A DNA stretch of 64,000 nt from Candidatus Aldehydirespirator sp. (GCA_965220645.1 OZ244836.1:3072335-3136334), one strand, 5' to 3'; positions 4,033 to 33,066 are shown, numbered from the stretch's first letter. Notes: a model not told the origin generated them from the sequence alone. Made by a program: numbers and translations.

Positions 4033-4496
4033 TAGTGCTCGGATCCGCTCATCATCTCCGCGGCGCGACGCCCTACTTCCTCGTCGTCGACATCCTCGAT
4101 GTGGGTGGCAACTCCCCAAGCGTGACCCCAGGGGTCCTCGAACTGCCCGGACCGATCACCATGGAACTGGTCCTCCACGGGCCTCAGCTCGGTGGCCCCG
4201 GCTGCCAGTGCCGCCGCGAAGGTGGCGTCGGCGTCCTCGACGTAGACGTACATCGAGATCGGGGAGCCGCCCACCGTCTTGGGGCCGATCACGCCCATCT
4301 CGGGGTACTCGTCGGACACCATGATCACCGAGTCACCCAGCAACAGCTCGCAGTGGCCGACACGGCCGTCGAAGACCATGCGGTGCCGCTCGGTGACCCC
4401 GAGGACCGCCGAGTAGAAGTCGATGGCCTCGGCCGCACCGTCCACGCACAGGTACGGCGTGATTCGCGGATAGTCATCGGGAATGGGGTTGACCAT
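4032..4496 (-). CDS. VOC/glyoxalase-family protein (PhnB-like)
   Basis: ITPYLCVDGAAEAIDFYSAVLG...DQFHGDRSGQFEDPWGHAWGVATH is the typical PhnB-like VOC pattern. Confidence 0.85.
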   Translation of the reverse strand: MVNPIPDDYPRITPYLCVDGAAEAIDFYSAVLGVTERHRMVFDGRVGHCELLLGDSVIMVSDEYPEMGVIGPKTVGGSPISMYVYVEDADATFAAALAAGATELRPVEDQFHGDRSGQFEDPWGHAWGVATHIEDVDDEEVGRRAAEMMSGSEH

Positions 4497-7632: not shown

Positions 7633-8955
7633 CTACAGCCCGGCCAACAGGTTCTGGGCGGCCACTGAGATCGGCTCGTTGAGTGCGCCTATGGCGGGTG
7701 AGTACACGTTCTCCATCGTGGCCAGTTCCTCGATGGTGAGGCCAACCCGGACCGCCATGGCCAGGAAGTCCGCTCGCTCCTTGATCCCCTCGCCGCCGAT
7801 CATCTGGGACCCGATCAGCCGGAGCGATCCGGGCTCGGCCAGGAGCTTCACCGTGATGGGCTTGACGCCCGGGTAGTAGCGGGCCCGGGTGATGCCCTGG
7901 GCCTTGCCCACAACGTGCTCAATGCCCAGCGCAGTAGCCAGCGTCTCCCCGAACGACACCCCGCCGATCATCCACTCGCCGGCCAGCAGTCCCCACGGAA
8001 CGAAGACTGCCCGGTAGTGGCGAGTCCCGCCGACGGCGTTGGTGCCGGCCGTTTTGCCCTGCGAGTAGGCGTGGGAGCCGGTCAGTCCCTGGATCGGAAT
8101 GTTGGAGACCCCGTGCGGGATCTCGGTGCAGTCGCCCGCGGCGTAGATGTTGGGATCCGAGGTCTGCATCTTCGAGTCGACGACCAGGCCGCCGGTTGTG
8201 CCCAGCTTGAGGCCGGCCGCGGCGGAGAGCGGATTGTTGGGCACCTTGTGTGTGCCGATGATGACGATGTCGGCTTCGATGTCGCCCTGCTGCGTCTCGA
8301 CGCCGCTCACGGTCCCGTCGCCCTTGAACGCCGTTACCCGGTTGCCCCACTGCATGTCGACGCCGGCGTCCTCCCAGGCCTGGCGAACCGGCTCGACGAT
8401 GTCGGGATCGAGCACGTCGGCCATGGGCCACGGGGCCGGATCGACGACGGTGCACTTGATCCCTCGGTGGACCATTGCCGCGACCATCTCCATCGCCACG
8501 AGACCCGCATCGATGATCACCGCGGAGGTGCAGGAGTCGAGGCGCTTGTCCCACTCCATGGCCTCCCGGATGTACTTGACCTCGTAGATGCCGTCGAGAC
8601 CGGCTCCGGGAACGTCCACTTGCGCATAGTTCCACCCGGTTGCGATCACCAGCCGGTCGTAGGACGCCTCACCCTCGCCGGCGACGGCGAGGGTGCGCGA
8701 CTTCGGGTCGATGGCTGTCACGGTTGTCTCGTAGTGGACGTCGATGCCGGTGGCGACGTACTGCTCCTTGGTGGCCAGGAAGAGACGCTCGAATGAGTCG
8801 ATCTCCTTTCCGTGGACGTAGGGAATGCCGCAGGGGCTGTAGGCCACATCGGTGTCCGCGGTGTAGACCACGACATCGGCGTTGGGATCGACACCCTTGG
8901 CTGCGCCCGCAGCCCCGATGCCTGCGGCGCCGCCGCCTATCACCGCTATCCGCAT
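7633..8955 (-). CDS. FAD-dependent pyridine nucleotide-disulfide oxidoreductase (CoA-disulfide reductase / NADH oxidase family)
   Basis: The N-terminus has VIGGGAAG. A single redox Cys lies in YSPCGIPY, a second dinucleotide fold in AVIIDAGLVAMEM, and the C-terminus has AAGDC. Confidence 0.88.
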   Translation of the reverse strand: MRIAVIGGGAAGIGAAGAAKGVDPNADVVVYTADTDVAYSPCGIPYVHGKEIDSFERLFLATKEQYVATGIDVHYETTVTAIDPKSRTLAVAGEGEASYDRLVIATGWNYAQVDVPGAGLDGIYEVKYIREAMEWDKRLDSCTSAVIIDAGLVAMEMVAAMVHRGIKCTVVDPAPWPMADVLDPDIVEPVRQAWEDAGVDMQWGNRVTAFKGDGTVSGVETQQGDIEADIVIIGTHKVPNNPLSAAAGLKLGTTGGLVVDSKMQTSDPNIYAAGDCTEIPHGVSNIPIQGLTGSHAYSQGKTAGTNAVGGTRHYRAVFVPWGLLAGEWMIGGVSFGETLATALGIEHVVGKAQGITRARYYPGVKPITVKLLAEPGSLRLIGSQMIGGEGIKERADFLAMAVRVGLTIEELATMENVYSPAIGALNEPISVAAQNLLAGL

Positions 8956-9001
8956 CGTGACCCTTTCGTCACAGAACTGTCTCCCGGCGTGCGACTAAGC
9001 C

Positions 9002-9103
9002 ATCCGAAATGTCGGATGAGATAACTACGTATCGGAACCTAAACCCGCCCTCAACCAGTGTCAAACCGCTCGCGCCCAGCGCGCGCCCCCTCAAACCGCC
9101 CGA
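9002..9103 (-). promoter_or_regulatory. regulatory module A: 16-bp palindrome plus CCTAAACCC / TCAAACCGC direct repeats, upstream of the CoADR-like operon
   Basis: The palindrome ATCCGAAATGTCGGAT lies at 9002-9017. CCTAAACCCGCCC is at 9038-9050, GTCAAACCGCT at 9060-9070 and CTCAAACCGCCCG at 9090-9103. The same layout recurs at 18085-18155. Confidence 0.55.
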
Positions 9104-9504
9104 ACCGACAGCTCGGGAGTGTTGCGGATCGTGTTGGTCACATAGCACACCCGGGCGGCTGCTTCGAGCAGGCGGTCCTTGACGGCATCCTCGCAGCCGA
9201 CGTCGACCCGGATCTCAAGGGCCGAGAAACTCGGACCGTCGTAAGTGCCGGTCACCTCCACACCCAGGTGGGCCAACTCGATGCCGCGCTTGCCGGCCGC
9301 GTAGGCCACCGCGAGGGTGAAGCACGATGAGACGGCGGCCAGCAGCAACTCGGTGGGCTGGGGGCCCTCGTTGGTCCCGCCCACACTCTCGGGCTCGTCC
9401 ACCGGGATCGTGAAGTCGCCGCTGGACACGTCGCAGCGGTAAGCGCCCAGCCACCGAGCCGAGACTGTAAGGGTCGGGGAACTCACGGCGGGTCGGCCTC
9501 TCAT
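9091..9504 (-). CDS. OsmC/Ohr family peroxiredoxin-like protein
   Basis: GGTNEGPQPTELLLAAVSSCF...RVCYVTNT is the OsmC-family pattern with both conserved Cys. The ATG at 9504 is preferred over the TTG at 9525 used in the ORF track. Confidence 0.8.
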   Translation of the reverse strand: MRGRPAVSSPTLTVSARWLGAYRCDVSSGDFTIPVDEPESVGGTNEGPQPTELLLAAVSSCFTLAVAYAAGKRGIELAHLGVEVTGTYDGPSFSALEIRVDVGCEDAVKDRLLEAAARVCYVTNTIRNTPELSVRAV

Positions 9505-9592
9505 AGCGCTGGCGCAGCCCGTCAACTATACGACACCGGTAGATCACAAGCGAAAAGGCCGTCGTCTAGGATGCACGCCCGGAGGTGGAGCA

Positions 9593-10231
9593 ATGAGTCA
9601 CCAGGCTGCGACTGAGAGCGCAGATCGGACCGCTTCGGAGCGTTCGGCCCAGGTGTCCGGCGAGAACCTGAGCGCGGTCGTGAACTCGATCGGACCCAAG
9701 ATCCGCCACCTGCGAAAGCAGTGGAGCCTGTCGCTGCAGCAGCTCGCCGACCGGTCCGACGTGTCGACCGCGGCCATTCACAAGGTGGAGTAGGGCACCA
9801 TGGTGCCGACCATCACGACCCTGCTGAAGCTGGCCGCAGCCCTCGAGCAGCCCGTGGCGTACTTCGTGGACGAGGAGCTTGAGTCACCGTCCTACGTGGT
9901 GTTCACTCCGGCAGCCGAGCGCAGGTCGATCTACACCCCCCATGAAGGCCTCACCTTGGAGGGCATCTCGGGCCCCTACGGGCAGTACTTCGTGGCCACC
10001 GCGATCGCCGAGGTGGAGCCCGGAGGCGACAGCGGCGAATCCCCGCTGCGCCACGCCGGCGAGGAACTGATCCACCTACTGTCGGGACGGCTCGACGTCG
10101 ACGTCTCCGGTCAGACGTTCCAGCTGCGCAGGGGCGACTCGATCCATTTCCGAACCGACCACGAGCATCGCTGGCGCAACCCCGCCAGGAGCCCCGCTCG
10201 TGCCGTGTGGACCGCCCTCAGACCCACCTGA
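9593..10231 (+). pseudogene. XRE-family HTH + cupin transcriptional regulator interrupted by an in-frame TAG (9791-9793)
   Basis: ORFs 9593..9793 and 9800..10231 are in the same frame. The joined sequence LSLQQLADRSDVSTAAIHKVE*GTMVPTITTLLKLAAAL is one continuous XRE helix-turn-helix. The C-terminal half is a cupin (GEELIHLLSGRLDV...GDSIHF). Confidence 0.65.
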
Positions 10232-10536: not shown

Positions 10537-11661
10537 ATGGCCAGCGGCAACCCTTTCAGGCCGTCGTTCGGGGCCTCGCCACCCGTGCTCGCAGGGCGCG
10601 CGGGGGTGCTGGATGCGCTCGGGGAGGCCCTGGACAGCGGTGCGGGTCACCCCGACTTCACGTCGCTGCTCACTGGAGTGCGCGGCGCGGGCAAGACGGT
10701 GACGCTCAACGCTGTGCAGGAGGACGCGCGCGACCGCGGCTGGCTGGTGATCGCGGAGACCGCCAGCGGGGATCTGTGCAGCAGACTGGTCGCCGCGGTG
10801 CTGGAGCTGTCGGGTGGCGACCACGGGCAGACTGGACGGCCGCGCCTGGCGGGAATCAGTGCACTAGGCGTGGGCATCGAGTTCACCCGAGCCGACCCGG
10901 TTGACGCTGGGGCGACCGACGCCCGGTTGCGGTCCGTTCTGACCGACCTTGGCTCCCGCCTCGCATCCGAGCGGAGAGGGCTGCTCATCACGCTCGACGA
11001 ACTACAGGGCGGCAAGCCGTCGGAGTTGCGCGAGTTTGCCACAACGCTTCAGCACGTCACGCGGCGCGAGGAACTGCCCATCGCGTTCGTGGGCGCGGGC
11101 CTTCCCAGCATCGACGACACCGTGCTACAGGATTCAGCCATCACGTTCCTGCAGCGCTGCTCCCGCCATGAGATCGCCGAGCTGTCCGACGCGGCCACTG
11201 TGACGGCCTTCGCTGAGCCGATAGCCGCGCATGGAGGACGCATCAGCGACGACGCGCTGCGTCGCGCCGTTGAAGCCAGCAATGGATACCCCTTCATGGT
11301 GCAGCTCATCGGCTTCCACTCCTGGCGGGCCGCATCCTCGGACCCGCCGCACCTGAAGATCGCCGACGTGTCGTCGGGTATAGCCGAGGCCGAGCGCCGG
11401 CTCCCCCACCTGGTGCTGGCGCCTATGTGGCGGTCGATGTCGGGAGTGGACCGCCAGTTCGCCCTCGCCATGGCCCAAGACGACGCCGAGACCTCGACCG
11501 CGGACATCTCAAAGCGCCTCGGTCGCAGTTCCAGCTACATAAGCACCTACCGGTCGCGGCTCATCCGAGCCGGCTTCATCCGCAGCACCGGCCACGGCCG
11601 CGTCGACTTCGCCCATCAAGCCACCCGCGCGTGGCTGCGATCCCCCGACCGAACCCCCTGA
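10537..11661 (+). CDS. AAA/STAND-like ATP-binding protein with a C-terminal winged-helix domain
   Basis: The N-terminus is NPFRPSFGASPPVLAGR. Walker A is GVRGAGKT and Walker B is LLITLDELQ. The C-terminus STADISKRLGRSSSYISTYRSRLIRAGFI looks like a wHTH. Confidence 0.85.
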   Translation: MASGNPFRPSFGASPPVLAGRAGVLDALGEALDSGAGHPDFTSLLTGVRGAGKTVTLNAVQEDARDRGWLVIAETASGDLCSRLVAAVLELSGGDHGQTGRPRLAGISALGVGIEFTRADPVDAGATDARLRSVLTDLGSRLASERRGLLITLDELQGGKPSELREFATTLQHVTRREELPIAFVGAGLPSIDDTVLQDSAITFLQRCSRHEIAELSDAATVTAFAEPIAAHGGRISDDALRRAVEASNGYPFMVQLIGFHSWRAASSDPPHLKIADVSSGIAEAERRLPHLVLAPMWRSMSGVDRQFALAMAQDDAETSTADISKRLGRSSSYISTYRSRLIRAGFIRSTGHGRVDFAHQATRAWLRSPDRTP

Positions 11662-11685
11662 CAGTTCGGCCAATATGATCAACTC

Positions 11686-14277
11686 GTGGAGACCGAGCCA
11701 GGCGGCGCGCCGACGAGCGCACCGGGCGGTTGGTCCCTGGATCCTACGCTTGTTCACCCTCCCTCCGCCGTCGGTGGGAGGAGCGCACCTGCCGGTTGGT
11801 ACCCGGACCCTGCGGACGTGTCAAGGCAGCGACTATGGGACGGCCATCAGTGGACCGACGAAGTAAGCACGGTGGTCAGCGCCTCTGCGGATGCGACGGA
11901 ACCACCCCCTTCTGAGCCGCCGCGTGGCGCTGACTCGGGGCCGCACAGTCCGCCGCTAGCGTCGCTCGGCAGACGACTAACGGCAAGAGTCATCGACTCC
12001 TTATGTCTGCTAGCAGCACTGTACCTGATCGCATCGCTAGCATCGAGATACGCAAGTTACGAACTATCTGACGTATTGAATGGCGAATTAAGCTCGCGGT
12101 TGATCCTGCTCGTGCCACTGTTCTTATGGGAATTCGTTCCACAGGCGTTCACCGGACGCACCTTAGGCAAGGCTCTGCTTGGTATTCGTATCACCAGAGG
12201 TGACGACTCTCCTAGCAACCGATTCCTGGCTGCCTTCGTTCGTTCTGTCGGAATGCTGCTCTTTCTTCTGCCACTCATATTTCTCATAAGCTGCATCACG
12301 GTATTCAGAAAGAAGCGCCGCACGATTCCGGATATGCTCGCCGGAACGTCAGTTGTGAGGGTCGCTACGGCACCGATCTGGCGACTAGTGATAGCCGTGC
12401 TCGTGATCATGATTCTGACCTCATCTGTGGGCTACAGCTATCTTGAGGTGTGGCGACCAGCGGCCAGAATAGGCAATGAGTGGGAGCCCTTGAAATCCTT
12501 TTACGATGCCGATCAAGTTCGAGCCGAAGTTGTCGCCAACATCGACATACTGGACTACGACTTTGTGGTACTCCGCAAGTCTGGAGACACATCCGTATGG
12601 GACATTGCCTACTTCACGGGTGATCCAGAAGACGAGGAAGCTCTCACGGATGAGCTTTGGGAAGACTTCCTCATGGTCGAGTGCTACCGGTATAGGGATG
12701 ACACCTCCGGTTCGCCGGGCGTCGCCTTCGATTGGCCCCAACTAACTCCTTCCGGCGGAACCGATGTGGAACTGTCTTGGCGTGCGAGCACGGGAGCGTC
12801 CGGACAAGCTGTGGGGCTGATGAACTATGAGTCAGAAGATGTGAGTGGTGCCTGGATCGCGACAGCCGGTCTGACGGAGGACGACATTCGGAACAATCTG
12901 CGCGAGAGTGGCCGCTCACCTGATGAACTCGACGGAATACCGGTTGTCTTGCATGACTTCTACGAGGCGTTGCTGGAGGCCGACAGGGTCACGCTCACGG
13001 CCGGGGCCACGAGCAACACCTGGGACCTGCCCGAGGACTCAAGCTCGCTCAGGAGTCTGGTCGAACGATGCGAGGAGGCAAGCGCCCAAGACTCGTCTCC
13101 CGTTGAAGCAACGCCCTCTACGGAAGCAAGCAGCAGCGAGGCGAGCACCGGAGGCTCCTTGCCTGGCGATGTGGATCGCAGTACGACTTCGGCATGCGAA
13201 TTCTCGGACCGGTCAGCCGCTGTAAGAGGCGCTGTCTTCCAAATGTTCGCCGGGGGCGGCATCGGCACGGCTTTCTATGTCGGCAACGACGAGTGGATAA
13301 CCGCGGCCCATGTCGTGGAGAACCAGCGCAGCGTCGTCCTGCGAAACGGCGCCACAGAGCTTTCAGCCACCGTCAAGGGCGGCGATCTGATGGCGGATCT
13401 TGCCCTGTTGGAAGCAAACGGCGACGGGATCGCAGCGCTTCGCTTCGGATCTCTGCGAGAAGTTGGTGCAGGCTTCACTGTTTTCGCGATCGGCTTTCCG
13501 CTGTACGAGGCAGCCGAGTCGTCAGTCACGAGCGGTGTGCTCTCCAGGGTTGAGCAGTACGAGGACTTGGGCGAGGTCATCGTGACGGACGCGTCGGTGA
13601 ATCCCGGCAACAGCGGAGGACCGCTCGTGGACGAGTGCGGCGATGTAGTAGGAATGATCATCGCCAAACATGTGGGAGCTGATGTTGAAGGCATCGGCTA
13701 CGCAGTCCCCGAGACGACGCTACAAGATCAGATCCCGTCTCTTCGCACAGCTGGACCCGATAGCATCGCAAGTGGTCGATCCGACGCCAGCGTCAATCGT
13801 GGAGGTTACACTGACGGCTCAACCGAAGAGGGTTGGATCTTCGGCGAAGATGCAAATGTCGATGGCGGATTTGAGTACTATTCTCTAGAGGCTGAATGGC
13901 ACTCTAGTTACATATCTGGGTACGGCCTTACACTGTTTCTGGTCTGTAGCACGACAGGATCATTGTCAAACGACTATATCTCTGTCTCGACGCCATTCCT
14001 GATCTTCAACGACTACAACTACGACAGTTCAACGGTCCGCTACAGGTTCGAGGACATGACAGCACCCTTCACTGAGCAGTCGTGGTGGAGTTCCGAAGAT
14101 GTCGAATCTTGGCTGTTCGCTCCAGAGGACACTTCATTCGCCGAGCACCTTGGTCGTGCCGGCTCGGGACGCCTGTACATGGAGTTCATTCCCGGCAGCA
14201 CCGTGGGAGATGTGGAGAGCGCCGAATTCATCGTCGATGGCGCGTCGGAGGTCTTGCGAGCGCTCGACTGCTGGTAG
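11686..14277 (+). CDS. multidomain membrane protein: DUF2510-like + RDD + unknown domain + trypsin-like serine protease + unknown C-terminal domain
   Basis: GWYPDPADVSRQRLWDGHQWTDE is the DUF2510 motif (aa 36-58). An RDD-type region with 3-4 TM helices spans aa 93-250. The S1 triad is ITAAHVV (H542), MADLALL (D571) and GNSGGPL (S643). G+C is clearly lower than in the flanks. Confidence 0.88.
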   Translation: METEPGGAPTSAPGGWSLDPTLVHPPSAVGGRSAPAGWYPDPADVSRQRLWDGHQWTDEVSTVVSASADATEPPPSEPPRGADSGPHSPPLASLGRRLTARVIDSLCLLAALYLIASLASRYASYELSDVLNGELSSRLILLVPLFLWEFVPQAFTGRTLGKALLGIRITRGDDSPSNRFLAAFVRSVGMLLFLLPLIFLISCITVFRKKRRTIPDMLAGTSVVRVATAPIWRLVIAVLVIMILTSSVGYSYLEVWRPAARIGNEWEPLKSFYDADQVRAEVVANIDILDYDFVVLRKSGDTSVWDIAYFTGDPEDEEALTDELWEDFLMVECYRYRDDTSGSPGVAFDWPQLTPSGGTDVELSWRASTGASGQAVGLMNYESEDVSGAWIATAGLTEDDIRNNLRESGRSPDELDGIPVVLHDFYEALLEADRVTLTAGATSNTWDLPEDSSSLRSLVERCEEASAQDSSPVEATPSTEASSSEASTGGSLPGDVDRSTTSACEFSDRSAAVRGAVFQMFAGGGIGTAFYVGNDEWITAAHVVENQRSVVLRNGATELSATVKGGDLMADLALLEANGDGIAALRFGSLREVGAGFTVFAIGFPLYEAAESSVTSGVLSRVEQYEDLGEVIVTDASVNPGNSGGPLVDECGDVVGMIIAKHVGADVEGIGYAVPETTLQDQIPSLRTAGPDSIASGRSDASVNRGGYTDGSTEEGWIFGEDANVDGGFEYYSLEAEWHSSYISGYGLTLFLVCSTTGSLSNDYISVSTPFLIFNDYNYDSSTVRYRFEDMTAPFTEQSWWSSEDVESWLFAPEDTSFAEHLGRAGSGRLYMEFIPGSTVGDVESAEFIVDGASEVLRALDCW

Positions 14278-17534: not shown

Positions 17535-18062
17535 TTAGGGAATGCTGTTCCCCGTGGCGAGGACTATGGCCGGGACCCAGAAGGTGTAGATCGCGGTTAC
17601 GGCCAGGATCCCGCCCAAGGGCTTCGCTTGCATCTTGCCGTAGGTGGTGGCCGTCACTGACAGGAAGGCGACCAGCCAGACGATCAGGATCGACCTGAGC
17701 ATCCACTCCCCGGGCAGGGCATCCCACCAGAAGAGAGGAAGGATGGCCGTCGGGACGCCCAGGTTGCCAACCACGCGCAAGTCCCATCCGTTCATCTCGG
17801 CCTTGCCGAGCACCACGAAGAACAGGCCGTAGAACACGATCAGTCCAGCCAGGACGACGGAAGCGTCATCCAGAGGCCGAGCCCACATGATGTAGACGGC
17901 TTGCACCAGGTTGAGCACACCGACGAGGAAGGACGCGTGGCCGATGCCGACAAGCGGATTCGTTCCACCCTCCTTCTGGTCGGCGCCCACTCCGAGGAAG
18001 TAGAGCGCATTGAGCCACACGACTAAGCCAGTGGCTATGAAGACGACGGTGATAGGAGGCAT
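17535..18062 (-). CDS. AmiS/UreI family amide/urea channel
   Basis: About 175 aa with six predicted TM helices, a typical AmiS/UreI size and pattern. The ATG at 18062 is preferred over the ORF-track start at 18107, which would read through the upstream palindrome. Confidence 0.75.
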   Translation of the reverse strand: MPPITVVFIATGLVVWLNALYFLGVGADQKEGGTNPLVGIGHASFLVGVLNLVQAVYIMWARPLDDASVVLAGLIVFYGLFFVVLGKAEMNGWDLRVVGNLGVPTAILPLFWWDALPGEWMLRSILIVWLVAFLSVTATTYGKMQAKPLGGILAVTAIYTFWVPAIVLATGNSIP

Positions 18063-18084
18063 AACAAGCCTTTCATCGGTCTCG

Positions 18085-18155
18085 ATCCGACATTTCGGAT
18101 GAGACATACTTATCTCGCAACCTAAACCCTGAGCATGGGCAGGTCAAACCCGCCC
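18085..18155 (-). promoter_or_regulatory. regulatory module B: palindrome plus CCTAAACCC / GTCAAACCCGCCC repeats, upstream of amiS
   Basis: The palindrome ATCCGACATTTCGGAT lies at 18085-18100, CCTAAACCC at 18121-18129 and GGTCAAACCCGCCC at 18142-18155. It aligns with 9002-9070 at about 33 of 46 positions over the first block, by hand count. Confidence 0.55.
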
Positions 18156-18168
18156 GGGGCGCGCTCGG

Positions 18169-18690
18169 CTATTTATCCCCGAGACTGCCGAGATGGTGGA
18201 CGCTGTGGTCGTGCGCGCGGTGGTCGTGGTCGCTGTGGTCGTGCGCGCGGTGGTCGTGGTCGCCGTGGTCGTGATGGGTGTGATCGTGGTCGTGCGCGCC
18301 GTGGTCGTGGTCGCCGTGGTCGTGATGGGTGTGATCGTGGTCGTGGTCGCCGTGGTCGTGGTCGCCGTGGTCGTGACCGGGCGGGCGGGCGGCGAACGTG
18401 GCGGCCAGCTCGTCTACCTCGGGCTCAGCGACTATCGCAAGCTCCGAGACGATCGACTCGAGCGCCTCCTGCCAGCGCTCGTAGTAGCGGTACTCGCCGG
18501 AGGGCTCCGCCTCCCAGCGCTGCACGGCGGCGATGAGGTGGTCGCGGAACTCGTCCCAGGTGAACAGGCCCTTCTCCACTAGGGCCATGGCCATCGCGAA
18601 GCTCCGGCCCTCCCAGGGCGCGCCGAACACCAGCTCGCCGTTGAGCCGGGGCGGGGCGGCCGGGCCTTCGATGTCGAGCGTCAGGGCCAC
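18169..18690 (-). CDS. nitrile hydratase accessory (activator) protein with a His/Asp-rich C-terminal tail
   Basis: LVFGAPWEGRSFAMAMALVEKGLFTWDEFRDHLIAAV is the NHase accessory-protein signature. The tail (aa 106-166) contains 28 His among 61 residues by hand count. Confidence 0.85.
   Translation of the reverse strand: MALTLDIEGPAAPPRLNGELVFGAPWEGRSFAMAMALVEKGLFTWDEFRDHLIAAVQRWEAEPSGEYRYYERWQEALESIVSELAIVAEPEVDELAATFAARPPGHDHGDHDHGDHDHDHTHHDHGDHDHGAHDHDHTHHDHGDHDHRAHDHSDHDHRAHDHSVHHLGSLGDK
18193..18375 (-). repeat. coding His/Asp codon repeat (GTGGTCGTG-type units)
   Basis: Tandem degenerate units encode HDHGDHDH... Confidence 0.9.
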
Positions 18691-19980: not shown

Positions 19981-20014
19981 ATTCTTCAGCCGGTGGCCCG
20001 GTGTGTCAACTATA
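19981..20014 (-). promoter_or_regulatory. putative promoter of the nitrile hydratase genes
   Basis: On the minus strand TTGACA (20009..20004) is followed after 17 nt by AAGAAT (19986..19981). TATAGT (20014..20009) is an alternative -10. GGGGAGG precedes the ATG at 19960. Confidence 0.4.
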
Positions 20015-20083
20015 AGACAGTGACAGGTCGCAAGAGAAACGCAGAACTGCCTGGCCCTGACGCACGGAACTGGATCGGAAGAC

Positions 20084-21673
20084 TCAAGAGGCGCCGGCCA
20101 GCTCGCGGGCTCGGGTCAGCAGCCTCTCCTCGGCGCGGGAGTAGCGCTCCTGCGCCTCGATCGCCCCCGCCCGCAGATGGGCAGCCCGGGCGGTGAATTC
20201 CTCGGCCATCGATCTCACCTCGCCCGGGGACGCTCCGCCCGTCGCCCTCCGGGTGGCCACGATCCGGCGCAGGTCCAGGGCGTCGGCCAGCGCGGCCGCG
20301 TCGAGTCCGAGCCGCCGCCCGCACACCTCGGAGGCCGCTTCGTCGAGCATCTCGGAGGTGATGTCCAGGCCGGTGAGTCCCCGGCGGCTGGCTGCCCGCA
20401 CGGCCCGTCCCACCACGTGGTACGCGGTGCGATAGTCGACGCCGGCGGCCACCATCACGTACTCGGCCAGATCGGTGGCCTGGGTGAAGCCGCGTGCGAG
20501 TTCGGACCACATCCGCTCGGCGTTCACCGTCAGGGTTCTAACCACCCCAGCCGTCAGGGCGCTGACCCGGATCGTGAAGTCCAGCGCCCGGGGAATCTCG
20601 CCGTAGGCGAAGATCAGGTTGTCGCTACGAGCCGACGGACTCTTGACCACGGCCAGGAACCCGCTCATGCGGCCGATCAGCACGCCGCTCGCTCCCCGGA
20701 TGATGGAGAGCGCGTAGGGGTTGCGCTTCTGGGGCATCAGCACCGAGGCCCGAGTGAACGGCCCGGCCAGGTCGACGTAGTCGAACTCCTGGCTCGACCA
20801 GATCTCAAGGTCCTCGGCCAGCTTGGCCTGGTTGGCGATCATGCTCGCCGAGGTGGCCAGCAGGTCGATGAACACGTCGGTCTGCCACATGGCGTCACGG
20901 GTGTGGGCGATGACGCCGTCGAATCCCAGCTCGCCCGCGATGGCGGCCCGGTCGTCGAGCAGCCGGCTGCCGTTAACGCAGCCCGCGCCCGCGGGGCTGG
21001 TGTTCACCTGCTCAAGGGCAGCCAAGAACCGCTCGCCGTCGCGCAGGGCGGGCGGGACGAAGGCGAGCAGGTAGTGACCGAAGGTGGAGGGCTGGGCCTG
21101 CTGAAGGTAGGTCTGGTCTCCCATGAACGTCTCAGCGTGTTCGGCAGCCACCGCGGCCGCGGCCGACGCGAAATCGGCTCCGACCTCTATGAGGCGGGCC
21201 GTCTGCGAGCGCAACAGCAGCCGCAGCGCCACCCGGGCGGCCTCCCGGCGGGGACGGCCGGCGTGGAGCCATCCGGCCGAATCGCCGATCCGTTCAACGA
21301 AGTGGCGCTCCCGCGAGTTGTAGACCTCGCCGAAGGCGGAGTCGTAGGGGAAATCGGCCGGGTCGGTGCCGTAGGCGTCCAGCAGCACCTTCAGCAGGTC
21401 GGCCGCCGCCGCCTGGGGTACCAGACCCCGGCTGCGCAGGTCCAGTACATGGCCGAGGTCAGCGAGATTCAGGCCGTGGTGCAATAGCGGGGCGTCGGCG
21501 ATCTCCCACGCGAAGCCGGCGTCGACCAGTTCCTGGGCCGGTGCCTCCGACGACGGCCCAGCCACTCGTGGACCCCGTCCGGCCTCTCGCCGGTTCTGCG
21601 TCATCGGTCCGAACGCATGGGAGAAGGCGGTCTCATTGCCATCGCACCGAGCGAGCGTAGTGCTGGCTCTCAC
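20084..21673 (-). CDS. argininosuccinate lyase family protein (fumarate-lyase superfamily)
   Basis: The signature SVLMPQKRNPYA is present, and the QAQPSTFGHYL region is ArgH-like. A GTG at 21673 overlaps the upstream stop (GTGA). An ATG at 21604 is an alternative start. Confidence 0.85.
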   Translation of the reverse strand: MRASTTLARCDGNETAFSHAFGPMTQNRREAGRGPRVAGPSSEAPAQELVDAGFAWEIADAPLLHHGLNLADLGHVLDLRSRGLVPQAAAADLLKVLLDAYGTDPADFPYDSAFGEVYNSRERHFVERIGDSAGWLHAGRPRREAARVALRLLLRSQTARLIEVGADFASAAAAVAAEHAETFMGDQTYLQQAQPSTFGHYLLAFVPPALRDGERFLAALEQVNTSPAGAGCVNGSRLLDDRAAIAGELGFDGVIAHTRDAMWQTDVFIDLLATSASMIANQAKLAEDLEIWSSQEFDYVDLAGPFTRASVLMPQKRNPYALSIIRGASGVLIGRMSGFLAVVKSPSARSDNLIFAYGEIPRALDFTIRVSALTAGVVRTLTVNAERMWSELARGFTQATDLAEYVMVAAGVDYRTAYHVVGRAVRAASRRGLTGLDITSEMLDEAASEVCGRRLGLDAAALADALDLRRIVATRRATGGASPGEVRSMAEEFTARAAHLRAGAIEAQERYSRAEERLLTRARELAGAS

Positions 21674-22575
21674 ACCCCACGATGATCGCCAGCCTGGGAG
21701 GAATGCCAGCGCAGGACCCGCTTCTCGACCGCGATCAGCAGCAGGACGAAGGCGACGCCGATGAAGGCCAGGACGAAGACGCTGCCCCAGAGTTGATCGA
21801 CAAGCAGTCGGGACTGGGCCACCCGGGCCGCGTTGCCCAGCCCCTCCCTGGAGTTGAAGAACTCGCCGATGACCGCTCCGACCAACGCCAAGCCGACGCA
21901 GATCCGGCCCGCGGCGAACAGGTACGGCAGCGAGTGCGGGATTCGCAGCCGCCAGTAGATCTCCCAGCGGCTGGCATTCACCGAGCGCAGCAGCTCATGG
22001 GTCTCCTCGTCGATTGAACGGAGCCCGATCAGCGCGTTGGCAACGAATGGAACCCAGGCGAACAGCATGGCAGTCAGGATCTTTGGCCAGGCCGTGAACC
22101 CGAACCACAGCAAGAAGATCGGCACCAGCACCGCCACTGGCGTCGACTGCATGAGCACGATCACCGGCATGGTCGCTCGCTCGACGAACTGAGAGTGCGC
22201 CATCCCCGTGGCGACGAGAAGGGCGGCTACAAAGGCGATGACGAACCCCCAGAAAGCCTCCTGCACGGTAACAAGGCCGTTTCGCCAGTAGAAGTCCGGA
22301 TTCTCGACCACATGTCGGATCACGTCGGAGGGAAGCGGCAGCGTGAGGGGCCGCAGGTTGCGGACCTGGACGTATATCTCCCATCCCACGAAGAAGGCGG
22401 TCAGGCCGGCGAAGGGCGCAATCAGCAGGGCCGCCCGGCGCACAGGCCGGCGGGGCACCTCGGGCGGATCCTCAGCGAACAGCCCATCAGCGACGTCCGG
22501 GGCGTCGGGAGGGCCGGAGCCTCCATCCGGCGCCGGCCGAGGCGGCTCGCCCGAAGAAGTGTCGCGACCACCCAT
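21670..22575 (-). CDS. ABC transporter permease (NitT/TauT family)
   Basis: This is an SsuC/TauC-like permease (STPVAVLVPIFLLWFG..., EAA-loop-like LRSVNASRWEIYWRLRIP). The ATG at 22575 overlaps the ATPase stop (TGATG). The ORF-track TTG at 22587 is an alternative. Confidence 0.85.
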   Translation of the reverse strand: MGGRDTSSGEPPRPAPDGGSGPPDAPDVADGLFAEDPPEVPRRPVRRAALLIAPFAGLTAFFVGWEIYVQVRNLRPLTLPLPSDVIRHVVENPDFYWRNGLVTVQEAFWGFVIAFVAALLVATGMAHSQFVERATMPVIVLMQSTPVAVLVPIFLLWFGFTAWPKILTAMLFAWVPFVANALIGLRSIDEETHELLRSVNASRWEIYWRLRIPHSLPYLFAAGRICVGLALVGAVIGEFFNSREGLGNAARVAQSRLLVDQLWGSVFVLAFIGVAFVLLLIAVEKRVLRWHSSQAGDHRGV

Positions 22576-23366
22576 CAGTTCGACCAACCGTGTAGCAACG
22601 CGGCCCGGACCTCGGCCAGGATGTGGTGGTAGTCGTCACTGTCCTCCACGTCGGCGCGGCGCGGTCTGGGCAGCGGGACATCGATGATCTTGGTGACGCG
22701 TCCCGGCCTGGCCCCTAGAACAGCCACCCGGTCCGACAGCACCACCGCCTCGGGAATCGAATGCGTCACGAACAGCACGGTGCTGCCGATGCGCTCCCAC
22801 AGATCGAGCAGCAGATACCGCATGTCGGCCCGGGTTATCTCATCGAGGGCCGAGAACGGCTCGTCCATCAACAGCACGGGCGCGCCGAGAGCGAAGGCCC
22901 GTGCGATGCTGACCCGTTGCTGCAGGCCTCCGCTCAACTCCCGAGGCAGCGAGTCCAGGAAGGGCGTCAGGCCGATGTCGTCAAGCATCTGGAGCTGGTC
23001 GTCGGCGGACATGCCGGGATTGTCCGGCCGGCGGTTCACGTCTCCGAGCAGCGACACGTTCCTGCGCACCGTCCGCCACGGCAGCAGGGCCGGGTGCTGG
23101 GGCACGAAGCCGTAGCGCTTCTGCCGGCGGGCATCCTCCGGCAACTGGCCGTTGACAACCACCGTGCCGCGGTCAGGCGCCAGGAGTCCCCCGGCCAGGC
23201 GCAGCATGGTGGACTTGCCGCAGCCGGACGGTCCGATCAGGCTGACGAACTCCGACTGACGCACATCCAGGCTTACCCTCGACAGAGCATGCACGAGCCG
23301 GTCCTTGAGTCTGAACCACTTCGAGACCGACTCGAAGCTGACGGCCGGTGCGGTCACCACATGCAC
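22575..23366 (-). CDS. ABC transporter ATP-binding protein (NitT/TauT family)
   Basis: Walker A GPSGCGKST, signature LSGGLQQRV and Walker B VLLMDEPFSALD are present. Confidence 0.92.
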   Translation of the reverse strand: MHVVTAPAVSFESVSKWFRLKDRLVHALSRVSLDVRQSEFVSLIGPSGCGKSTMLRLAGGLLAPDRGTVVVNGQLPEDARRQKRYGFVPQHPALLPWRTVRRNVSLLGDVNRRPDNPGMSADDQLQMLDDIGLTPFLDSLPRELSGGLQQRVSIARAFALGAPVLLMDEPFSALDEITRADMRYLLLDLWERIGSTVLFVTHSIPEAVVLSDRVAVLGARPGRVTKIIDVPLPRPRRADVEDSDDYHHILAEVRAALLHGWSN

Positions 23367-24088
23367 ATCCCGCCGGTGACGTTGATTGCCTGACCCGTCA
23401 TGTAGCTCCCACTTTCAGAGGCCAAGAAGGCAACGGCGGAGGCTACATCGGCGGGATCGCCGAGCCGACCGAGCGGGCTCTTGGCCGTCCACGCCGCGAT
23501 CTGGTCGGCGGTGCGGGTGTCAGCACCCATCTCGGTGAGGACATAGCCGGGACAGACCGCGTTGACCGTCACGCCGTGGGGACCGAGTTCCATGGCCGCG
23601 ATCCGGCTGAGGGCCACCACCGCTGCCTTCGACGCCGCGTAGGCCGCTTCCCCCGGCGTACCCAACTTGGCCGCCATCGATGCCACGTTCACGATCCGAC
23701 CTCCGGCGCCGGCCGCGATCATGGCCGGCGCCAGCGCCTGGATCACAACCACCATGGAGCGAACGTTCACCCGGTGGACGCGATCCCACTCCTCGAGCGC
23801 CATCTCCAGCAGCGGTGTCTTCGAGAACACGCCCGCGTTGTTCACCACCAGCCAGTAGGGCCCGTCCCCAACATCTGCTGCCAGCGCTTGCCGGGTCGCC
23901 GCGGCGTCGGCCAGGTCGACGACGACACTGGTAGCTCCGAGGCCGCGGGCGACATCCTCGACGGCGGGGTCGACGTCGAGCAGGACGGCGTGCATGCCTT
24001 CTTCGGTCAGCCGCTCCGCGATCCGGCGGCCGATCCCTCTCGCCGCGCCGGTCACGAGACAGCGGCGGCCCCGGAGTCCGTCAGCCAT
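23354..24088 (-). CDS. SDR family oxidoreductase (FabG-like)
   Basis: TGAARGIG, NNAG and YAASKAAV motifs are present. Confidence 0.9.
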   Translation of the reverse strand: MADGLRGRRCLVTGAARGIGRRIAERLTEEGMHAVLLDVDPAVEDVARGLGATSVVVDLADAAATRQALAADVGDGPYWLVVNNAGVFSKTPLLEMALEEWDRVHRVNVRSMVVVIQALAPAMIAAGAGGRIVNVASMAAKLGTPGEAAYAASKAAVVALSRIAAMELGPHGVTVNAVCPGYVLTEMGADTRTADQIAAWTAKSPLGRLGDPADVASAVAFLASESGSYMTGQAINVTGGMCMW

Positions 24089-24111
24089 GTGGGGGTCGGG
24101 GCTCTCGACGG

Positions 24112-24759
24112 CTACGCGACTGGATCGGCACCCAGGATCTGGGCCCGAAAGCCGGGGTCGCTGAGCAGATCTTTGACAGTGTGGACGATCGCCTGGGTGT
24201 GGGCGTCGATCTCGATGTTGACCGAGTCGCCCACGCTCACCAAGCCGAGCGTCGTCCGCTCGAGCGTCTCGGGGATCAGGCTCACCGCGATCCGGTGGCT
24301 CTCGCGATCGACTCCCGAGATGGTCAGGCTGGCACCGTCAATGGCGACCCACCCCTTCCATAGCAGGTAGGGCATGAGCGACTCATCGACGTCGAACCAC
24401 ATCGTGCGGTTGTCGCCTTCCGCGGCTATCTCGCACACGGTGGCCGTCCCCGACACATGGCCGGACAGCACATGCCCTCCGAGTTCATCGCCGAAGCGCA
24501 GCGAACGCTCGATGTTGACGGGGTCGCCGACCGACAGAGCACCAAGGTTCGTGCACTGCATCGTCTCCGCGATCACATCGAACCGCGCCTTCGAGCCGTC
24601 GATGTCAGACACGGTCAGGCACGTCCCGTTGTTGGCCACGCTTGCGCCGGTCTGAAGTACGTCAGCGTGGGGGCCGAGGTCGACGGTGAGACGGCAGATG
24701 CCTTCTGCCGCCTCGATGCCGACGACCCGGCCCATCCCCTGGACGATTCCCGTGAACAT
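24112..24759 (-). CDS. ribE: riboflavin synthase (alpha chain) homologue
   Basis: The N-terminus is MFTGIVQGMG. The two-lumazine-binding-repeat layout is present (GASVANNGTCLTV / GWVAIDGASLTI). Confidence 0.88.
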   Translation of the reverse strand: MFTGIVQGMGRVVGIEAAEGICRLTVDLGPHADVLQTGASVANNGTCLTVSDIDGSKARFDVIAETMQCTNLGALSVGDPVNIERSLRFGDELGGHVLSGHVSGTATVCEIAAEGDNRTMWFDVDESLMPYLLWKGWVAIDGASLTISGVDRESHRIAVSLIPETLERTTLGLVSVGDSVNIEIDAHTQAIVHTVKDLLSDPGFRAQILGADPVA

Positions 24760-24818
24760 GCCGTGCGTTCCCGCCTGCTTGTGCGGCTATGTCGATCGAT
24801 GCTCCGGCCGGCTGAGGG

Positions 24819-26114
24819 TCAGGGCCCCGGCCAGATCAGTTCCGCTCCGTCGTAGACGCTCTCGGCGAAGCCCGGATCCACCATGGACTGCCAGTCGGGA
24901 GTCGACTCCCACACGCCGGCCTGCACCAAGGCGTCGATCTCAGATCCGAAGAGGTCGAGATCGGGGATTCCCACACCGGCGCCAGCCGGGGCGAGATCGG
25001 CGATCAGGGCGGACTCCACGCCCCAGCGGTAGCGCTCCGCCTCCATGGCGAAGTACAGCGGGTTGCCGGCCGCGTCGATCAGATCGAAGGCGTTCTCCAC
25101 GGCGATGTCCGGGTTCGCGGCCGCGAAGGCTTGGCCCCGGATCAGGGCCCGCACCACGTCGGCCACCAGGCCGGGGTTGTCGTCGATCATCGACTGCGTC
25201 GTGAACGTGACGCCGAAGCTGGAGGGCACGCCGAAGTCGAGCGGATCGAGCATCGTGAAGGCCACGCCGTTGTTGGTCAGAGTGTTGGGCTCGTTGGACT
25301 TGTACACCGGCAGGGCGTCGATGCCCAGATCTAGGTGCGCCACCGGGTCGAATCCGTCCAGCAGGATCTCCTCGAAGCAGCTCCGCTCGATTCCCGACAA
25401 TGCGACGGAAGCCTGCAGCGAGTACGGCAGGTCGCCCTTGATTCCTATGAGGCTGCCGCACAGCCCGGAGAAGTCCTCGATGTCGCTTCCCTCTGGCAGC
25501 ACGATGGCCTCTATCGCGGTGCGACCCCAGTGGATCAGGGCCACGAGATCGCCCTCGCCGGCGACGTTGTTGGCCACCATCTCGGCGAACGATCCGGATG
25601 CTCCGAACTGGGCCTGCCCCTCGATGACCAGCGCCCCGTTGGACGGAGCGAAGCCGGGCTGGATCTCGAAGTCGATGCAGAGTTCCTCGAAGTAACCCTG
25701 GGCATCAGCCACGATCGCATCGATGATCCCGGCCGCGGCCGCGAAATCGAACCCGGTAACGAAGGTCATCTTGCCGGCGTCGCGGTTGGCCTGGCAGCGC
25801 TCCGCAGCCGCGTCCGGCTCAGGCTCAGCGGCCGGCTCAGGCTCAGCAGCCGGCTCGGGCTCGGGCTCAGCAGCCGGCTCAGGCTCAGCAGCCGGCTCAG
25901 GGTCAACAGCCGGCTCGGGCTCAGGCTCTGCAGCCGGTTCGGGCTCGGCTGCCGCCTCAGGGTCAACAGCCGGCTCAGGGTCAACAGCCGGCGCCGGTTC
26001 AGGCGCGGCCGCATCTTCGGCGTCGTCGCCGCTGCACGCAGCCGCCACCAGCGCCAGCACGAGCACGGCCAGCAATATCAGCCGTAGCCGTCTGAATGAA
26101 TCGTGGTGCCTCAT
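24819..26114 (-). CDS. ABC transporter substrate-binding lipoprotein (NMT1/SsuA-like) with a (PEPA)n linker
   Basis: The ATG at 26114 is preceded by GGGAGGG. The lipobox is LVAAACSG. An acidic Pro/Glu/Ala repeat precedes an SsuA/NMT1-like domain. The 171 aa upstream in the ORF track are spurious. Confidence 0.85.
   Translation of the reverse strand: MRHHDSFRRLRLILLAVLVLALVAAACSGDDAEDAAAPEPAPAVDPEPAVDPEAAAEPEPAAEPEPEPAVDPEPAAEPEPAAEPEPEPAAEPEPAAEPEPDAAAERCQANRDAGKMTFVTGFDFAAAAGIIDAIVADAQGYFEELCIDFEIQPGFAPSNGALVIEGQAQFGASGSFAEMVANNVAGEGDLVALIHWGRTAIEAIVLPEGSDIEDFSGLCGSLIGIKGDLPYSLQASVALSGIERSCFEEILLDGFDPVAHLDLGIDALPVYKSNEPNTLTNNGVAFTMLDPLDFGVPSSFGVTFTTQSMIDDNPGLVADVVRALIRGQAFAAANPDIAVENAFDLIDAAGNPLYFAMEAERYRWGVESALIADLAPAGAGVGIPDLDLFGSEIDALVQAGVWESTPDWQSMVDPGFAESVYDGAELIWPGP
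25815..26006 (-). repeat. coding tandem repeat encoding (A)EPEP(A) units
   Basis: GGCTCAGGCTCAGC(A/G)GCCGGCTC-type units. Residues 37-100 of the lipoprotein are PEPAAEPEPEPA... Confidence 0.9.
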
Positions 26115-26242
26115 CTCGCCCTCCCTCGAAGCGAAGACCATCGCCGGACCATCTCGTTGCATCCGGCTCCAAGCGCAGTCTGCCAGCGCCCAGCGACCGA
26201 TGCCAAGGCTGCGCCCAGTCGGGGCCACCGAGGGCCACCGGC

Positions 26243-29276: not shown

Positions 29277-29297
29277 CTGTGTGATCTGGGTGCGGCG

Positions 29298-31102: not shown

Positions 31103-31154
31103 GCGCGCCGGCCGGCGCGATTGCGCCGTGGGTGCCGCACCCGTTGGCATCACC

Positions 31155-31811: not shown

Positions 31812-31973
31812 CGTCGTCGCTCCTTGTCGCCTGCGGCGCCCCGGCGGACCCGAGGCTTGGCATGGCCCGTCGCCTTTCATCTACTATAAGAAAGTCGGTT
31901 CTGCTATCGGCAGACTTGAGGGCTCCGTGCCGGTTCCGACGCACCCGGCGGGGTCGGGCGAGAGGAGTGAGCC

Positions 31974-32951: not shown

Positions 32952-33066
32952 TGAGGACCGAAGTTCGCGGGCACCGTGAAAGCCCGCCCGTGTCGACATG
33001 ATGAGGACCGAAGTTCGCGGGCACCGTGAAAGCCCGCCCGTGTCGACATGATGAGGACCGAAGTCG
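32945..33066 (+). repeat. 50-bp tandem repeat (2 full copies plus a partial one) spanning the arcC stop / fdrA start junction
   Basis: ACATGATGAGGACCGAAGT... recurs with ATGs at 32948, 32998 and 33048. The first two open the 17-codon ORF MMRTEVRGHRESPPVST, and each ends in a TGA that overlaps the next ATG. Confidence 0.9.

Follow-up and report, generated by a model that had tools for sequence, protein, structure and literature searches.

Nitrogen starvation is known to regulate the cyanobacterial Nit1C gene cluster. The function of Nit1C-type clusters has been an open question since 2005, and nitrogen starvation, the assimilation of cyanide and resistance to peroxide have all been associated with their products. 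The signature genes of Nit1C/gpr clusters encode members of the NitB, MSMEG_0568 and MSMEG_0567 families (PMC1199592, PMC11049912, PMC6039565), and the Nit1C genes are co-regulated and travel together from one phylum to another (PMC1199592). In M. smegmatis, the gpr cluster is under the control of GlnR and additionally features a SoxR box (PMC6039565, PMC3662644), and in Pseudomonas the Nit1C cluster is controlled by the sigma-54 activator NitA (PMC11049912). In the original description of the Nit1C cluster, Podar et al. (PMC1199592) did not detect a binding site that was conserved.

Here, we analysed a 64-kb stretch of DNA (the window) from Candidatus Aldehydirespirator sp., in which two minus-strand operons, starting with a gene for a CoADR-like flavoprotein and with amiS, respectively, are preceded by similar upstream regions, termed below the CoADR and amiS modules. 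The original prediction assigned the two operons to a thiol/persulfide module and to a separate nitrile-hydratase-linked cluster. Family matches paint a different picture. The 162-aa 'DsrE' protein turned out to be a member of the Sll0783/MSMEG_0572 (NitB) family (TIGR04044, 201 bits against a cut-off of 110), and the radical SAM and GNAT proteins were assigned to the families MSMEG_0568 (TIGR04043, 364 bits, cut-off 304) and MSMEG_0567 (TIGR04045, 88 bits, cut-off 68), respectively. Since all three signature families are represented, the two operons are best viewed as halves of one Nit1C-like cluster, which explains why they should share control. The cluster also encodes a cobalt-type nitrile hydratase, with the alpha subunit matching TIGR01323 (296 bits), the beta subunit TIGR03888 (209 bits) and the accessory protein TIGR03889. 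The CoADR-like flavoprotein scores 260 bits against the CoADR cut-off of 579, and TIGR04046, the family looked for as the MSMEG_0569-type flavoprotein, is outside its top matches. A relative of AIR synthase resembling sll0787 is encoded 12 kb away (30098-31102; 243 bits, cut-off 321), and a glycosyltransferase of the MSMEG_0565 family is present elsewhere in the window. No nitrilase, be it of subfamily 1 (sll0784 family) or another, was found among the genes examined, the neighbouring hydrolytic enzyme being the nitrile hydratase. This variant of the cluster is widespread, occurring in Acidimicrobiales, other Actinomycetota and some Proteobacteria.

The similarity between the upstream regions of the two operons is centred on exact 16-bp palindromes of the form ATCCGA-N4-TCGGAT, ATCCGAAATGTCGGAT at 9002-9017 and ATCCGACATTTCGGAT at 18085-18100, both located precisely where they had been predicted. 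The two palindromes are reverse complements of one another. No other exact palindrome of this form exists in the 64-kb window, and the two matches obtained with two mismatches correspond to the chance level. In addition, both regions contain AACCTAAACCC (9036-9046 and 18119-18129) and GTCAAACC (9060-9067 and 18144-18151). An ungapped alignment of the minus strand showed that the two modules agree in 34 of the 45 positions between GGGTTTAGGTT and the palindrome end, in line with the earlier count by hand of about 33 of 46, and in 42 of 68 positions if counted from the -35 region on. When the region of the CoADR module was compared with the window using blastn, the amiS module was the sole significant non-self match (E = 1e-5). 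Each region is thus the only significant match of the other in the window, and the proposal of a shared cis-regulatory module is supported.

A common dispersed repeat would be incompatible with such a view. However, there are only two copies of the module in the window. A strict pattern scan of JGI metagenomes produced five exact matches in four stretches, all of them 5' of CoADR or AmiS orthologues, which argues that the module is not a dispersed repeat of the REP or MITE type. Likewise, in 80 related loci module copies are found at orthologous promoter positions only, always in front of CoADR or AmiS orthologues. A separate, truly dispersed repeat is present elsewhere in the window.

Read on the minus strand, both modules display the anatomy of a promoter: a -35 hexamer, 17 nt, a -10 hexamer, 18 nt, the palindrome, a Shine-Dalgarno sequence (GAAAGG) and an ATG codon. 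The individual elements, including matches to a conserved 9-nt word S defined further below, are the following:

9059-9064, minus strand: predicted -35 hexamer TTGACA of the CoADR operon, present in 30/30 orthologous promoters at 17-18 nt from the -10 hexamer
9036-9041, minus strand: predicted -10 hexamer TAGGTT of the CoADR operon after a 17-nt spacer, present in 29/30 orthologues (column identity 0.99)
9029-9037, minus strand: S1, TTCCGATAC, matching the S word at 8/9 positions and overlapping both the 3' end of the -10 hexamer and the predicted transcription start
9002-9017, either strand: 16-bp palindrome of the CoADR module, combining ATCCGACAT (minus strand, 9009-9017) with ATCCGAAAT (plus strand, 9002-9010)
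8953-8967, minus strand: Shine-Dalgarno sequence GAAAGGG (8961-8967) and ATG (8953-8955) of the CoADR-like gene (7633-8955)
18142-18147, minus strand: predicted -35 hexamer TTGACC of the amiS operon, with TTGAC present in 25/25 orthologues at 17-18 nt spacing
18119-18124, minus strand: predicted -10 hexamer TAGGTT of the amiS operon after a 17-nt spacer (column identity 0.97)
18112-18120, minus strand: S1-like TTGCGAGAT, matching S at 6/9 positions, immediately 3' of the -10 hexamer
18085-18100, either strand: 16-bp palindrome of the amiS module, combining ATCCGAAAT (minus strand) with ATCCGACAT (plus strand) as overlapping inverted S words
18079-18105, minus strand: extended inverted repeat GTCTCATCCGA-AATG-TCGGAT(C)GAGAC, predicted to fold into a hairpin of 11 bp with a single bulge in the leader RNA of amiS
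18060-18074, minus strand: Shine-Dalgarno sequence GAAAGG (18069-18074) and ATG (18060-18062) of amiS (17535-18062)

With transcription starts placed from the -10 boxes only, both modules have the features of sigma-70/HrdB-type promoters (a hexamer close to TTGACA, a spacer of 16-18 nt and TANNNT), and AACCTAAACCC contains what is by its sequence a -10 hexamer of the actinobacterial TANNNT type. This changes the interpretation of two elements of the original prediction, as GTCAAACC and AACCTAAACCC, thought to be repeats recognized by a regulator, correspond to the -35 and -10 hexamers, respectively. GTCAAACC itself is present in both modules, but the additional GTCAAACC(C)GC repeat proposed at 9090-9103 corresponds to the end of the coding sequence of the OsmC-like gene, whose stop codon (9091-9093) it overlaps. 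It is not conserved, relatives reading GCCGTCTGA at this position. A generic scan for E. coli-type promoters reported none at either module, because TAGGTT shares only 3/6 positions with TATAAT; the promoters were read by hand and then backed by conservation. We also considered promoters of the SigH/R type (GGAAT-N18-GTT) and the SigF/sigma-B type (GGTTT-N16-GGGTAT), but GGTTT and GGGT vary in relatives, whereas TTGAC and TAGGTT are kept. An ATG at 18107, in frame with amiS and inside the hairpin, was dismissed as the start of an N-terminal extension or of a uORF, neither the frame nor the ATG being conserved.

For the comparison with relatives, a set of 86 related loci was assembled, including 10 kb of flanking sequence at both ends. 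The identity of the window is 99.9% to a metagenome contig from ENA (locus L002) and 99.2% to a 3.6-Mb contig (locus L001). Homologues of CoADR and a scan of a genome collection place the window in Candidatus Aldehydirespirator, order Acidimicrobiales. Conservation of the segment between the -10 hexamer and about +28 extends to about 30 related species of Acidimicrobiales. TTGAC is found in 55/55 orthologous promoters at 17-18 nt spacing, and TAGGTT in 49/55. Column identities are distributed along the promoter as follows:

-10 hexamer: 0.97-0.99 (about 30 species)
18 nt past the -10 hexamer: 0.80-0.92, with 0.92 at CoADR (30 species)
left palindrome arm: 0.98-1.0 (CoADR 1.0, amiS 0.98)
palindrome centre: 0.91-0.92 (CoADR 0.92)
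right palindrome arm: 0.74-0.80 (CoADR 0.74, amiS 0.80)
spacer between -35 and -10: 0.59-0.70
remaining leader downstream: 0.51-0.53

This footprint delimits a functional block extending from about -40 to about +28. Most relatives carry ATCCGACACGTCGG upstream of CoADR rather than a perfect palindrome. The perfect ATCCGA/TCGGAT palindrome 5' of CoADR is peculiar to the lineage of the window, and locus L007, with 99% CoADR identity, already differs. In sister lineages (L037-L039), amiS and CoADR are adjacent, with amiS as the upstream gene, and share one module in front of them, indicating that the two modules of the window are paralogous copies. Judging from this arrangement, they are paralogues of one ancestral promoter that drove an amiS-CoADR operon, and they parted when the cluster was rearranged.

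Paralogy by itself would also be expected if the modules were simply duplicated strong constitutive promoters with their 5' UTRs, conserved by descent or because of general needs and having no dedicated regulator. Such a possibility would agree with the -35 and -10 boxes being near consensus for Actinomycetota and with the large amount of flanking DNA that the closest relatives have in common. On the other hand, it does not explain why the transcribed block past the -10 hexamer is as conserved as the core hexamers, while both the spacer between the hexamers and the remaining leader drift. It is also at odds with the finding that a 9-nt word from this block is common to two promoters of the TATAGT type and to promoters of other phyla, embedded in unrelated surrounding sequence. 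We therefore consider purely constitutive promoters a highly improbable explanation.

The 9-nt word, S = AT[AC]CGA[ACT]A[CT], is given by the conserved left arm and centre of the palindrome and was derived from the palindromes of the window together with the CoADR leaders of Alphaproteobacteria (TCATACGAAAT, TTATACGATAT). In terms of S, the palindrome represents two overlapping inverted words at a predicted position of about +13 to +28. This description supersedes an alternative one, in which an inverted repeat TCGG-N9-CCGA around the CoADR -10 hexamer together with direct repeats spaced by 20 bp constituted the main feature; these repeats occur in CoADR-type promoters but are absent from amiS-type ones. 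The window contains six S matches compared with 2.25 expected. Five of them are in three promoter regions (four in the two palindromes and one at 9528-9536, between the OsmC-like and XRE-cupin genes) and one is inside an ORF. The match at 9528 took no part in defining S. Two additional promoters of the window thus come into consideration, one with this exact match and the other with a degenerate one:

9521-9536, plus strand: GTCAACTATACGACAC, including the exact S word at 9528-9536 (in the sense of the XRE-cupin gene), conserved in about 27 related species
20005-20020, plus strand: GTCAACTATAAGACAG, including a degenerate S (7/9) at 20012-20020, a variant kept in about 17 related species

Both sites coincide with a minus-strand -10 hexamer TATAGT. 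In the first case, the hexamer (9525-9530) belongs to the OsmC-like gene, and the GTCAACTATACGACAC site is at the same time about 45 nt upstream of the predicted start site of the XRE-cupin gene. In the second case, the hexamer (20009-20014) is upstream of the gene for the nitrile hydratase beta subunit (start 19960). In loci L037-L042, the S site of the nitrile hydratase promoter is common to the divergent XRE-cupin gene.

S was then counted in the collected loci. The definition of S was post hoc, based on sequences already inspected, and phylogenetic relatedness links many of the counted loci; with this in mind, S is about 30- to 200-fold enriched at cluster promoters, across phyla, over a background density of 0.039 per kb (1.55 Mb of loci):

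XRE-cupin genes, S within 300 nt upstream: 30 observed, 0.9 expected
CoADR, S upstream: 42 observed, 0.7 expected
AmiS, S upstream: 30 observed, 0.15 expected

The matches upstream of XRE-cupin genes represent about seven independent lineages, including Alpha- and Gammaproteobacteria in which the XRE-cupin gene is 8-10 kb away from CoADR. In seven Nocardioides-type loci, S is positioned between the -35 and -10 hexamers of another gene, and further S sites occur at other cluster promoters in Nocardioides-type and proteobacterial loci. The exact S word is absent from the CoADR promoters of the Nocardioides type, which have CGA-containing variants only. The 275-aa gene preceded by an S box in Nocardioides-type loci matched no NCBIfam family. 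Many S sites, such as those over the -10 hexamers of the OsmC and nitrile hydratase promoters, are in untranscribed positions, indicating that S acts on DNA. Taken together, the distribution of S suggests that four promoters (CoADR, amiS, OsmC/XRE and nitrile hydratase) form one small regulon.

If S is a DNA site, how well does the palindrome conform to an operator? An inverted half-site is indeed present just past the core promoter, and S1 lies over the -10 hexamer. However, the two half-sites are not equally constrained (1.0 for the left one and 0.74-0.80 for the right one) and their spacing is not fixed, the centre comprising 3-5 nt. With the left arm so much better kept than the right one, the alignment does not fit a simple symmetric operator. 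Moreover, the geometry of S pairs varies. They are arranged head-to-head with a 4-nt centre in the window, have 3- or 5-nt centres in relatives and are tail-to-tail in L044 and L046, while several promoters have a single S. Such variability would be unusual for one rigid dimer.

Alternatively, the palindrome might act mainly at the RNA level, as a stem-loop close to the 5' terminus of the mRNAs of amiS and CoADR. The stem-loop might increase transcript stability, influence translation or be the target of an RNA-binding protein or a ligand, and the similarity at the DNA level would be a consequence. Indeed, all 25 distinct amiS leaders have a predicted hairpin, ranging from -10 to -20 kcal/mol, and in the window the hairpins have z-scores against shuffled sequences of -3.5 for amiS (fold of -14.5 kcal/mol) and -4.3 for CoADR. 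Departures in the right arm often keep G-U pairs of the sense strand (three in L024, two each in L008 and L011), the outer stem shows three compensatory changes at the level of clades (C-G to U-A, G-C to A-U and U-A to C-G), and the stem is retained with loops of 3, 4 or 5 nt. The sense strand folds into a more stable structure than the antisense strand in 16/23 informative cases, but the sequences are related and the difference is not significant (p about 0.08). Covariation in a model-fitted alignment is hardly different from the background: 86.4% of cells pair compared with 85.6% in shuffles, and only one pair is changed on both sides. A covariance model built from the amiS leader retrieves every amiS leader but CoADR leaders only weakly, and its covariation is not significant; the CoADR leaders of relatives show neither a consistent fold nor a strand bias. 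In L037 and L038, the conserved word is in the loop instead of the stem, and its recurrence at untranscribed promoter positions also argues against RNA as the primary level of action. The Rfam search gave no match above the gathering score in the window and none in the amiS module up to E = 10; for the CoADR module, the single match at the same threshold was a chance one, to the model of a eukaryotic lncRNA (13 bits, E = 6.9). Neither palindrome is followed by a U-tract, and the terminator scan had no match on the gene strand; an intrinsic terminator or attenuator can thus be discarded. Dual hexaloop targets of the ANTAR/AmiR type were rejected as well, since there is a single hairpin with a loop of 3-5 nt.

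On balance, we find it unlikely that the palindrome functions mainly as RNA, and view an RNA role as a secondary possibility next to that of a DNA site. The two roles might also be combined in a single element, serving both as a DNA operator and as a leader hairpin, in which case it would represent a new small cis-regulatory RNA of Nit1C-like/nitrile hydratase clusters. Although very doubtful, this idea has a recognizable signature: the conserved hairpin of the amiS leader with a sequence-invariant 5' arm or loop, and the stem with a conserved 13-nt loop in CoADR leaders of the Nocardioides type (GAAAGTC...GACTTTC). If it were true, the RNA would answer to a pathway metabolite or an RNA-binding factor, adding post-transcriptional control.

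Returning to S as a DNA site, the shared module is best explained by one regulator acting on both operons, as proposed originally. The candidate put forward at that time was the product of the following gene:

9593-10231, plus strand: XRE-cupin gene of PuuR-like architecture (HTH_3 and Cupin_2 domains), conserved in synteny, candidate repressor

Several observations speak for this choice. In 72/82 loci of Actinomycetota and Proteobacteria, the XRE-cupin and CoADR-like genes are syntenic, and in about 30 genera the two are directly divergent. Together with the core word upstream of its own gene, this synteny lends good support to the candidate. Among the transcription factors of the cluster, XRE-cupin alone travels with it; no other conserved one was found. 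Across phyla, from Ruegeria to Aldehydirespirator, the helix-turn-helix shows hardly any variation, including the recognition helix VSxAAIHK(V/I)E, which fits the presence of one conserved half-site. Thus, the adjacent XRE-cupin protein is most likely the regulator of the S sites and, by prediction, a repressor. It should not be taken for an equivalog of PuuR, with which it has only the domain architecture in common: PuuR (NF007408) is its best NCBIfam match, but with 67 bits against a cut-off of 211. The nearest solved structure, 1Y9Q, is that of an uncharacterised HTH_3/cupin protein solved without DNA.

Alternatively, S might be bound by a different protein, for example, a global regulator of the nitrogen or redox type whose gene is elsewhere in the genome. 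There are precedents, as the canonical Nit1C/gpr clusters are under unlinked or different regulators, GlnR together with the SoxR box (PMC6039565, PMC3662644) and NitA (PMC11049912). In addition, loci L048, L050 and L052 have S-type promoters and no XRE-cupin gene within 10 kb. In the window itself, the XRE-cupin gene, called interrupted in the original prediction, is a pseudogene, and yet the S sites are intact. The interruption, however, is not a frameshift but one in-frame TAG at 9791-9793, in place of which three near-identical genomes have CAG. Since the nonsense change is single and recent, the S sites had no time to decay. Furthermore, none of the four promoter regions matches the GlnR box (Gn2AC-n6-GnAACA or gTnAc-n6-GaAAc), and the presence of S upstream of the XRE-cupin gene in independent lineages is what is usually seen with autoregulation. 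It therefore seems quite unlikely that S is bound by a protein other than the one accompanying the cluster.

Overall, we propose, with a probability of roughly 60%, that the two paralogous modules are sigma-70/HrdB-type promoters combined with repressor sites, that they belong to a Nit1C-like regulon of four promoters, and that XRE-cupin is the most likely regulator. In this model, a TTGAC(A/C)-17 nt-TAGGTT promoter would be followed directly downstream by sites for a DNA-binding repressor specific to the cluster. S would be the recognition unit, present as S1 at the end of the -10 hexamer and the transcription start and as two inverted overlapping copies in the palindrome, and a protein bound to the palindrome would block RNA polymerase binding or promoter escape. 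S over the -10 hexamers of the OsmC/XRE and nitrile hydratase promoters would bring all four promoters under one control. The regulon would then coordinate a rearranged Nit1C-like cluster comprising nitrile hydratase, the AmiS channel, the radical SAM and GNAT proteins, and the CoADR-like and Sll0783/NitB-like proteins. XRE-cupin would repress the cluster and sense a pathway metabolite through its cupin domain, with the effector relieving repression. The promoter-like anatomy, the footprint of conservation, the enrichment of S, the synteny and the paralogy are shown by the sequences, whereas we infer that there is repression, which protein exerts it and that an effector exists.

If this model is correct, it has several implications. 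The cluster variant offers a compact operator word and a dedicated predicted regulator with a small-molecule-binding cupin domain, and the ligand of this domain, once found, would directly indicate what the pathway consumes or produces. The S word helps to delimit the genes belonging to the unit, candidates including Xcb-like (coenzyme M biosynthesis-like) genes. Finally, if XRE-cupin is a repressor, a strain with the TAG allele should express the cluster constitutively; this natural nonsense allele provides a ready comparison for metatranscriptomes.

As a kind of system, the promoter-operator arrangement proposed here is ordinary. The operator word and the pairing of this regulator with this cluster appear to be undescribed in the literature searched, in which we found nothing relevant on XRE-cupin regulators of nitrile hydratase or Nit1C clusters. 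Compared with 5'-terminal stabilising stem-loops and other leader hairpins, the amiS hairpin is similarly positioned a few nucleotides from the inferred 5' end and upstream of a free Shine-Dalgarno sequence. It differs in that one arm is conserved in sequence whether paired or not, covariation is weak and there is no Rfam family. There is also a resemblance to the operators of XRE repressors (Cro/CI-type helix-turn-helix) that have a cupin sensor domain at the C-terminus, such as E. coli PuuR. The candidate regulator likewise combines HTH_3 and Cupin_2 domains, and in both cases short, partly palindromic sites occupy the -10, the start and the early transcribed region at several promoters of one catabolic cluster, including the promoter of the regulator itself. 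The targets are different, putrescine catabolism for PuuR and a Nit1C-like/nitrile hydratase cluster here, and the S word is not known to be related to the PuuR box. With Nit1C (nitBCDEFGH) and gpr (MSMEG_0565-0572), the cluster of the window has in common the three signature families, all above their cut-offs. Unlike those clusters, it features a cobalt-type nitrile hydratase instead of a nitrilase and a CoADR-like flavoprotein, and it is split into several operons. Its predicted control is also distinct from the known regulation of Nit1C, relying on sigma-70-like promoters, a downstream S box and an XRE-cupin neighbour.

The candidate repressor gene of the window, encoding the XRE-cupin protein (9593-10231, plus strand), carries an amber stop at 9791-9793, where one C-to-T change converts Gln67 (CAG) to a stop codon within the helix-turn-helix. 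Apart from this codon, the gene is identical to the intact orthologues (212 aa) in L001 and L002, two contigs nearly identical to the window; the orthologue in the relative L007 is also intact and differs at one residue of the helix-turn-helix. Either the gene has been inactivated very recently, or the codon reflects a strain variant or an error in the assembly. About 4 kb (10537-14277), holding two genes, separates the XRE-cupin gene from the AllG-like gene:

10537-11661, AAA_16 ATPase with a winged helix
11686-14277, DUF2510-RDD-trypsin protein

The window shares this segment with L001 and L002, but the related locus L003, L007 and most relatives lack it. It has the look of a strain-specific insertion.

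For amiS, automatic ORF calling starts at an ATG (18105-18107) that lies in frame, 15 codons upstream, within the leader hairpin. We rejected this start, since relatives preserve neither the reading frame nor the ATG; translation therefore likely begins at 18062. The neighboring nitrile hydratase accessory protein carries at its C terminus a long tail rich in His and Asp (18169-18400), for which imperfect tandem repeats (GTGGTCGTG and similar) code. Near-identical contigs differ in its length (173 aa in the window versus 146 aa in L001), and the tail may be cobalt-binding.

In Nocardioides-type loci, the exact S word, the 9-nt core of the proposed operator, is found between the −35 and −10 elements (CTCTACT-ATCCGA[CT]A[CT]-N10-TATAGT):

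about 9030-9190, minus strand, S word between −35 and −10 in L056, L057, L059, L061, L064, L068 and L073

The gene behind this promoter, located directly downstream of the XRE-cupin gene (275 aa in L057), appears to be leaderless, and its protein has no NCBIfam match. The CoADR promoters of the Nocardioides-type loci (L055-L074) consist of TTGACG, 17 nt and TATAGT, followed by AAACGAAAGTCAACCATGGTGGGCGACTTTC. The latter is a putative stem of 6-7 bp (GAAAGTC/GACTTTC, in some cases with G-U pairs) that encloses a strongly conserved 13-nt loop, and this loop includes the palindrome ACCATGGT.

The S word also occurs in other arrangements. Upstream of the XRE-cupin gene in one locus there is a perfect 22-bp inverted pair, ATACGACAC-ATAT-GTGTCGTAT, and two alphaproteobacterial loci have tail-to-tail pairs:

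L054 15403-15424, inverted pair
L044 16864-16879, tail-to-tail pair ATATCGTATCCGACAC
L046 17370-17385, tail-to-tail pair ATATCGTATACGACAC

Separately, the CoADR leader of the related locus L036 (about 9880-9930) features a 24-nt tandem duplication spanning the S1 site (GTTCCGATACGCAG..ATCTCA), the S-like copy after the CoADR −10.

A dispersed G+C-rich repeat with the core GAGCGAGGCCGTGGCCCGAGCGGCCCGTGAGCG is present in at least seven copies in the window and recurs in relatives:

window 6738, 40785, 44907, 44951, 45958, 49944 and 52346, repeat copies
L007 about 9870-9990, repeat copy
L017 about 4100-4210, repeat copy

In L007 and two further loci (L019 and L020), the promoter-operator is separated from the CoADR start codon by an inserted copy of about 100 nt, and L017 has a copy in its OsmC leader.

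Finally, relatives of bacterial coenzyme M biosynthesis genes adjoin the Nit1C-like genes in the window (20084-36000). They are the XcbC-like, XcbD-like, XcbA-family and ComA genes below; the other four genes listed share the region:

20084-21673, XcbC-like lyase
21670-22587, sulfonate-type ABC permease
26243-27598, XcbD-like
27583-28626, XcbA family
28488-29276, ComA phosphosulfolactate synthase
30098-31102, sll0787-type AIR-synthase-like gene
33048-34601, FdrA
34493-35770, MSMEG_0565-family glycosyltransferase

In the related locus L006/L040, ComA and two lyases are encoded directly upstream of nitrile hydratase. Taken together with the Xcb-like and ComA neighbors in the window, this arrangement suggests that Nit1C-type chemistry is linked to a sulfonated thiol.
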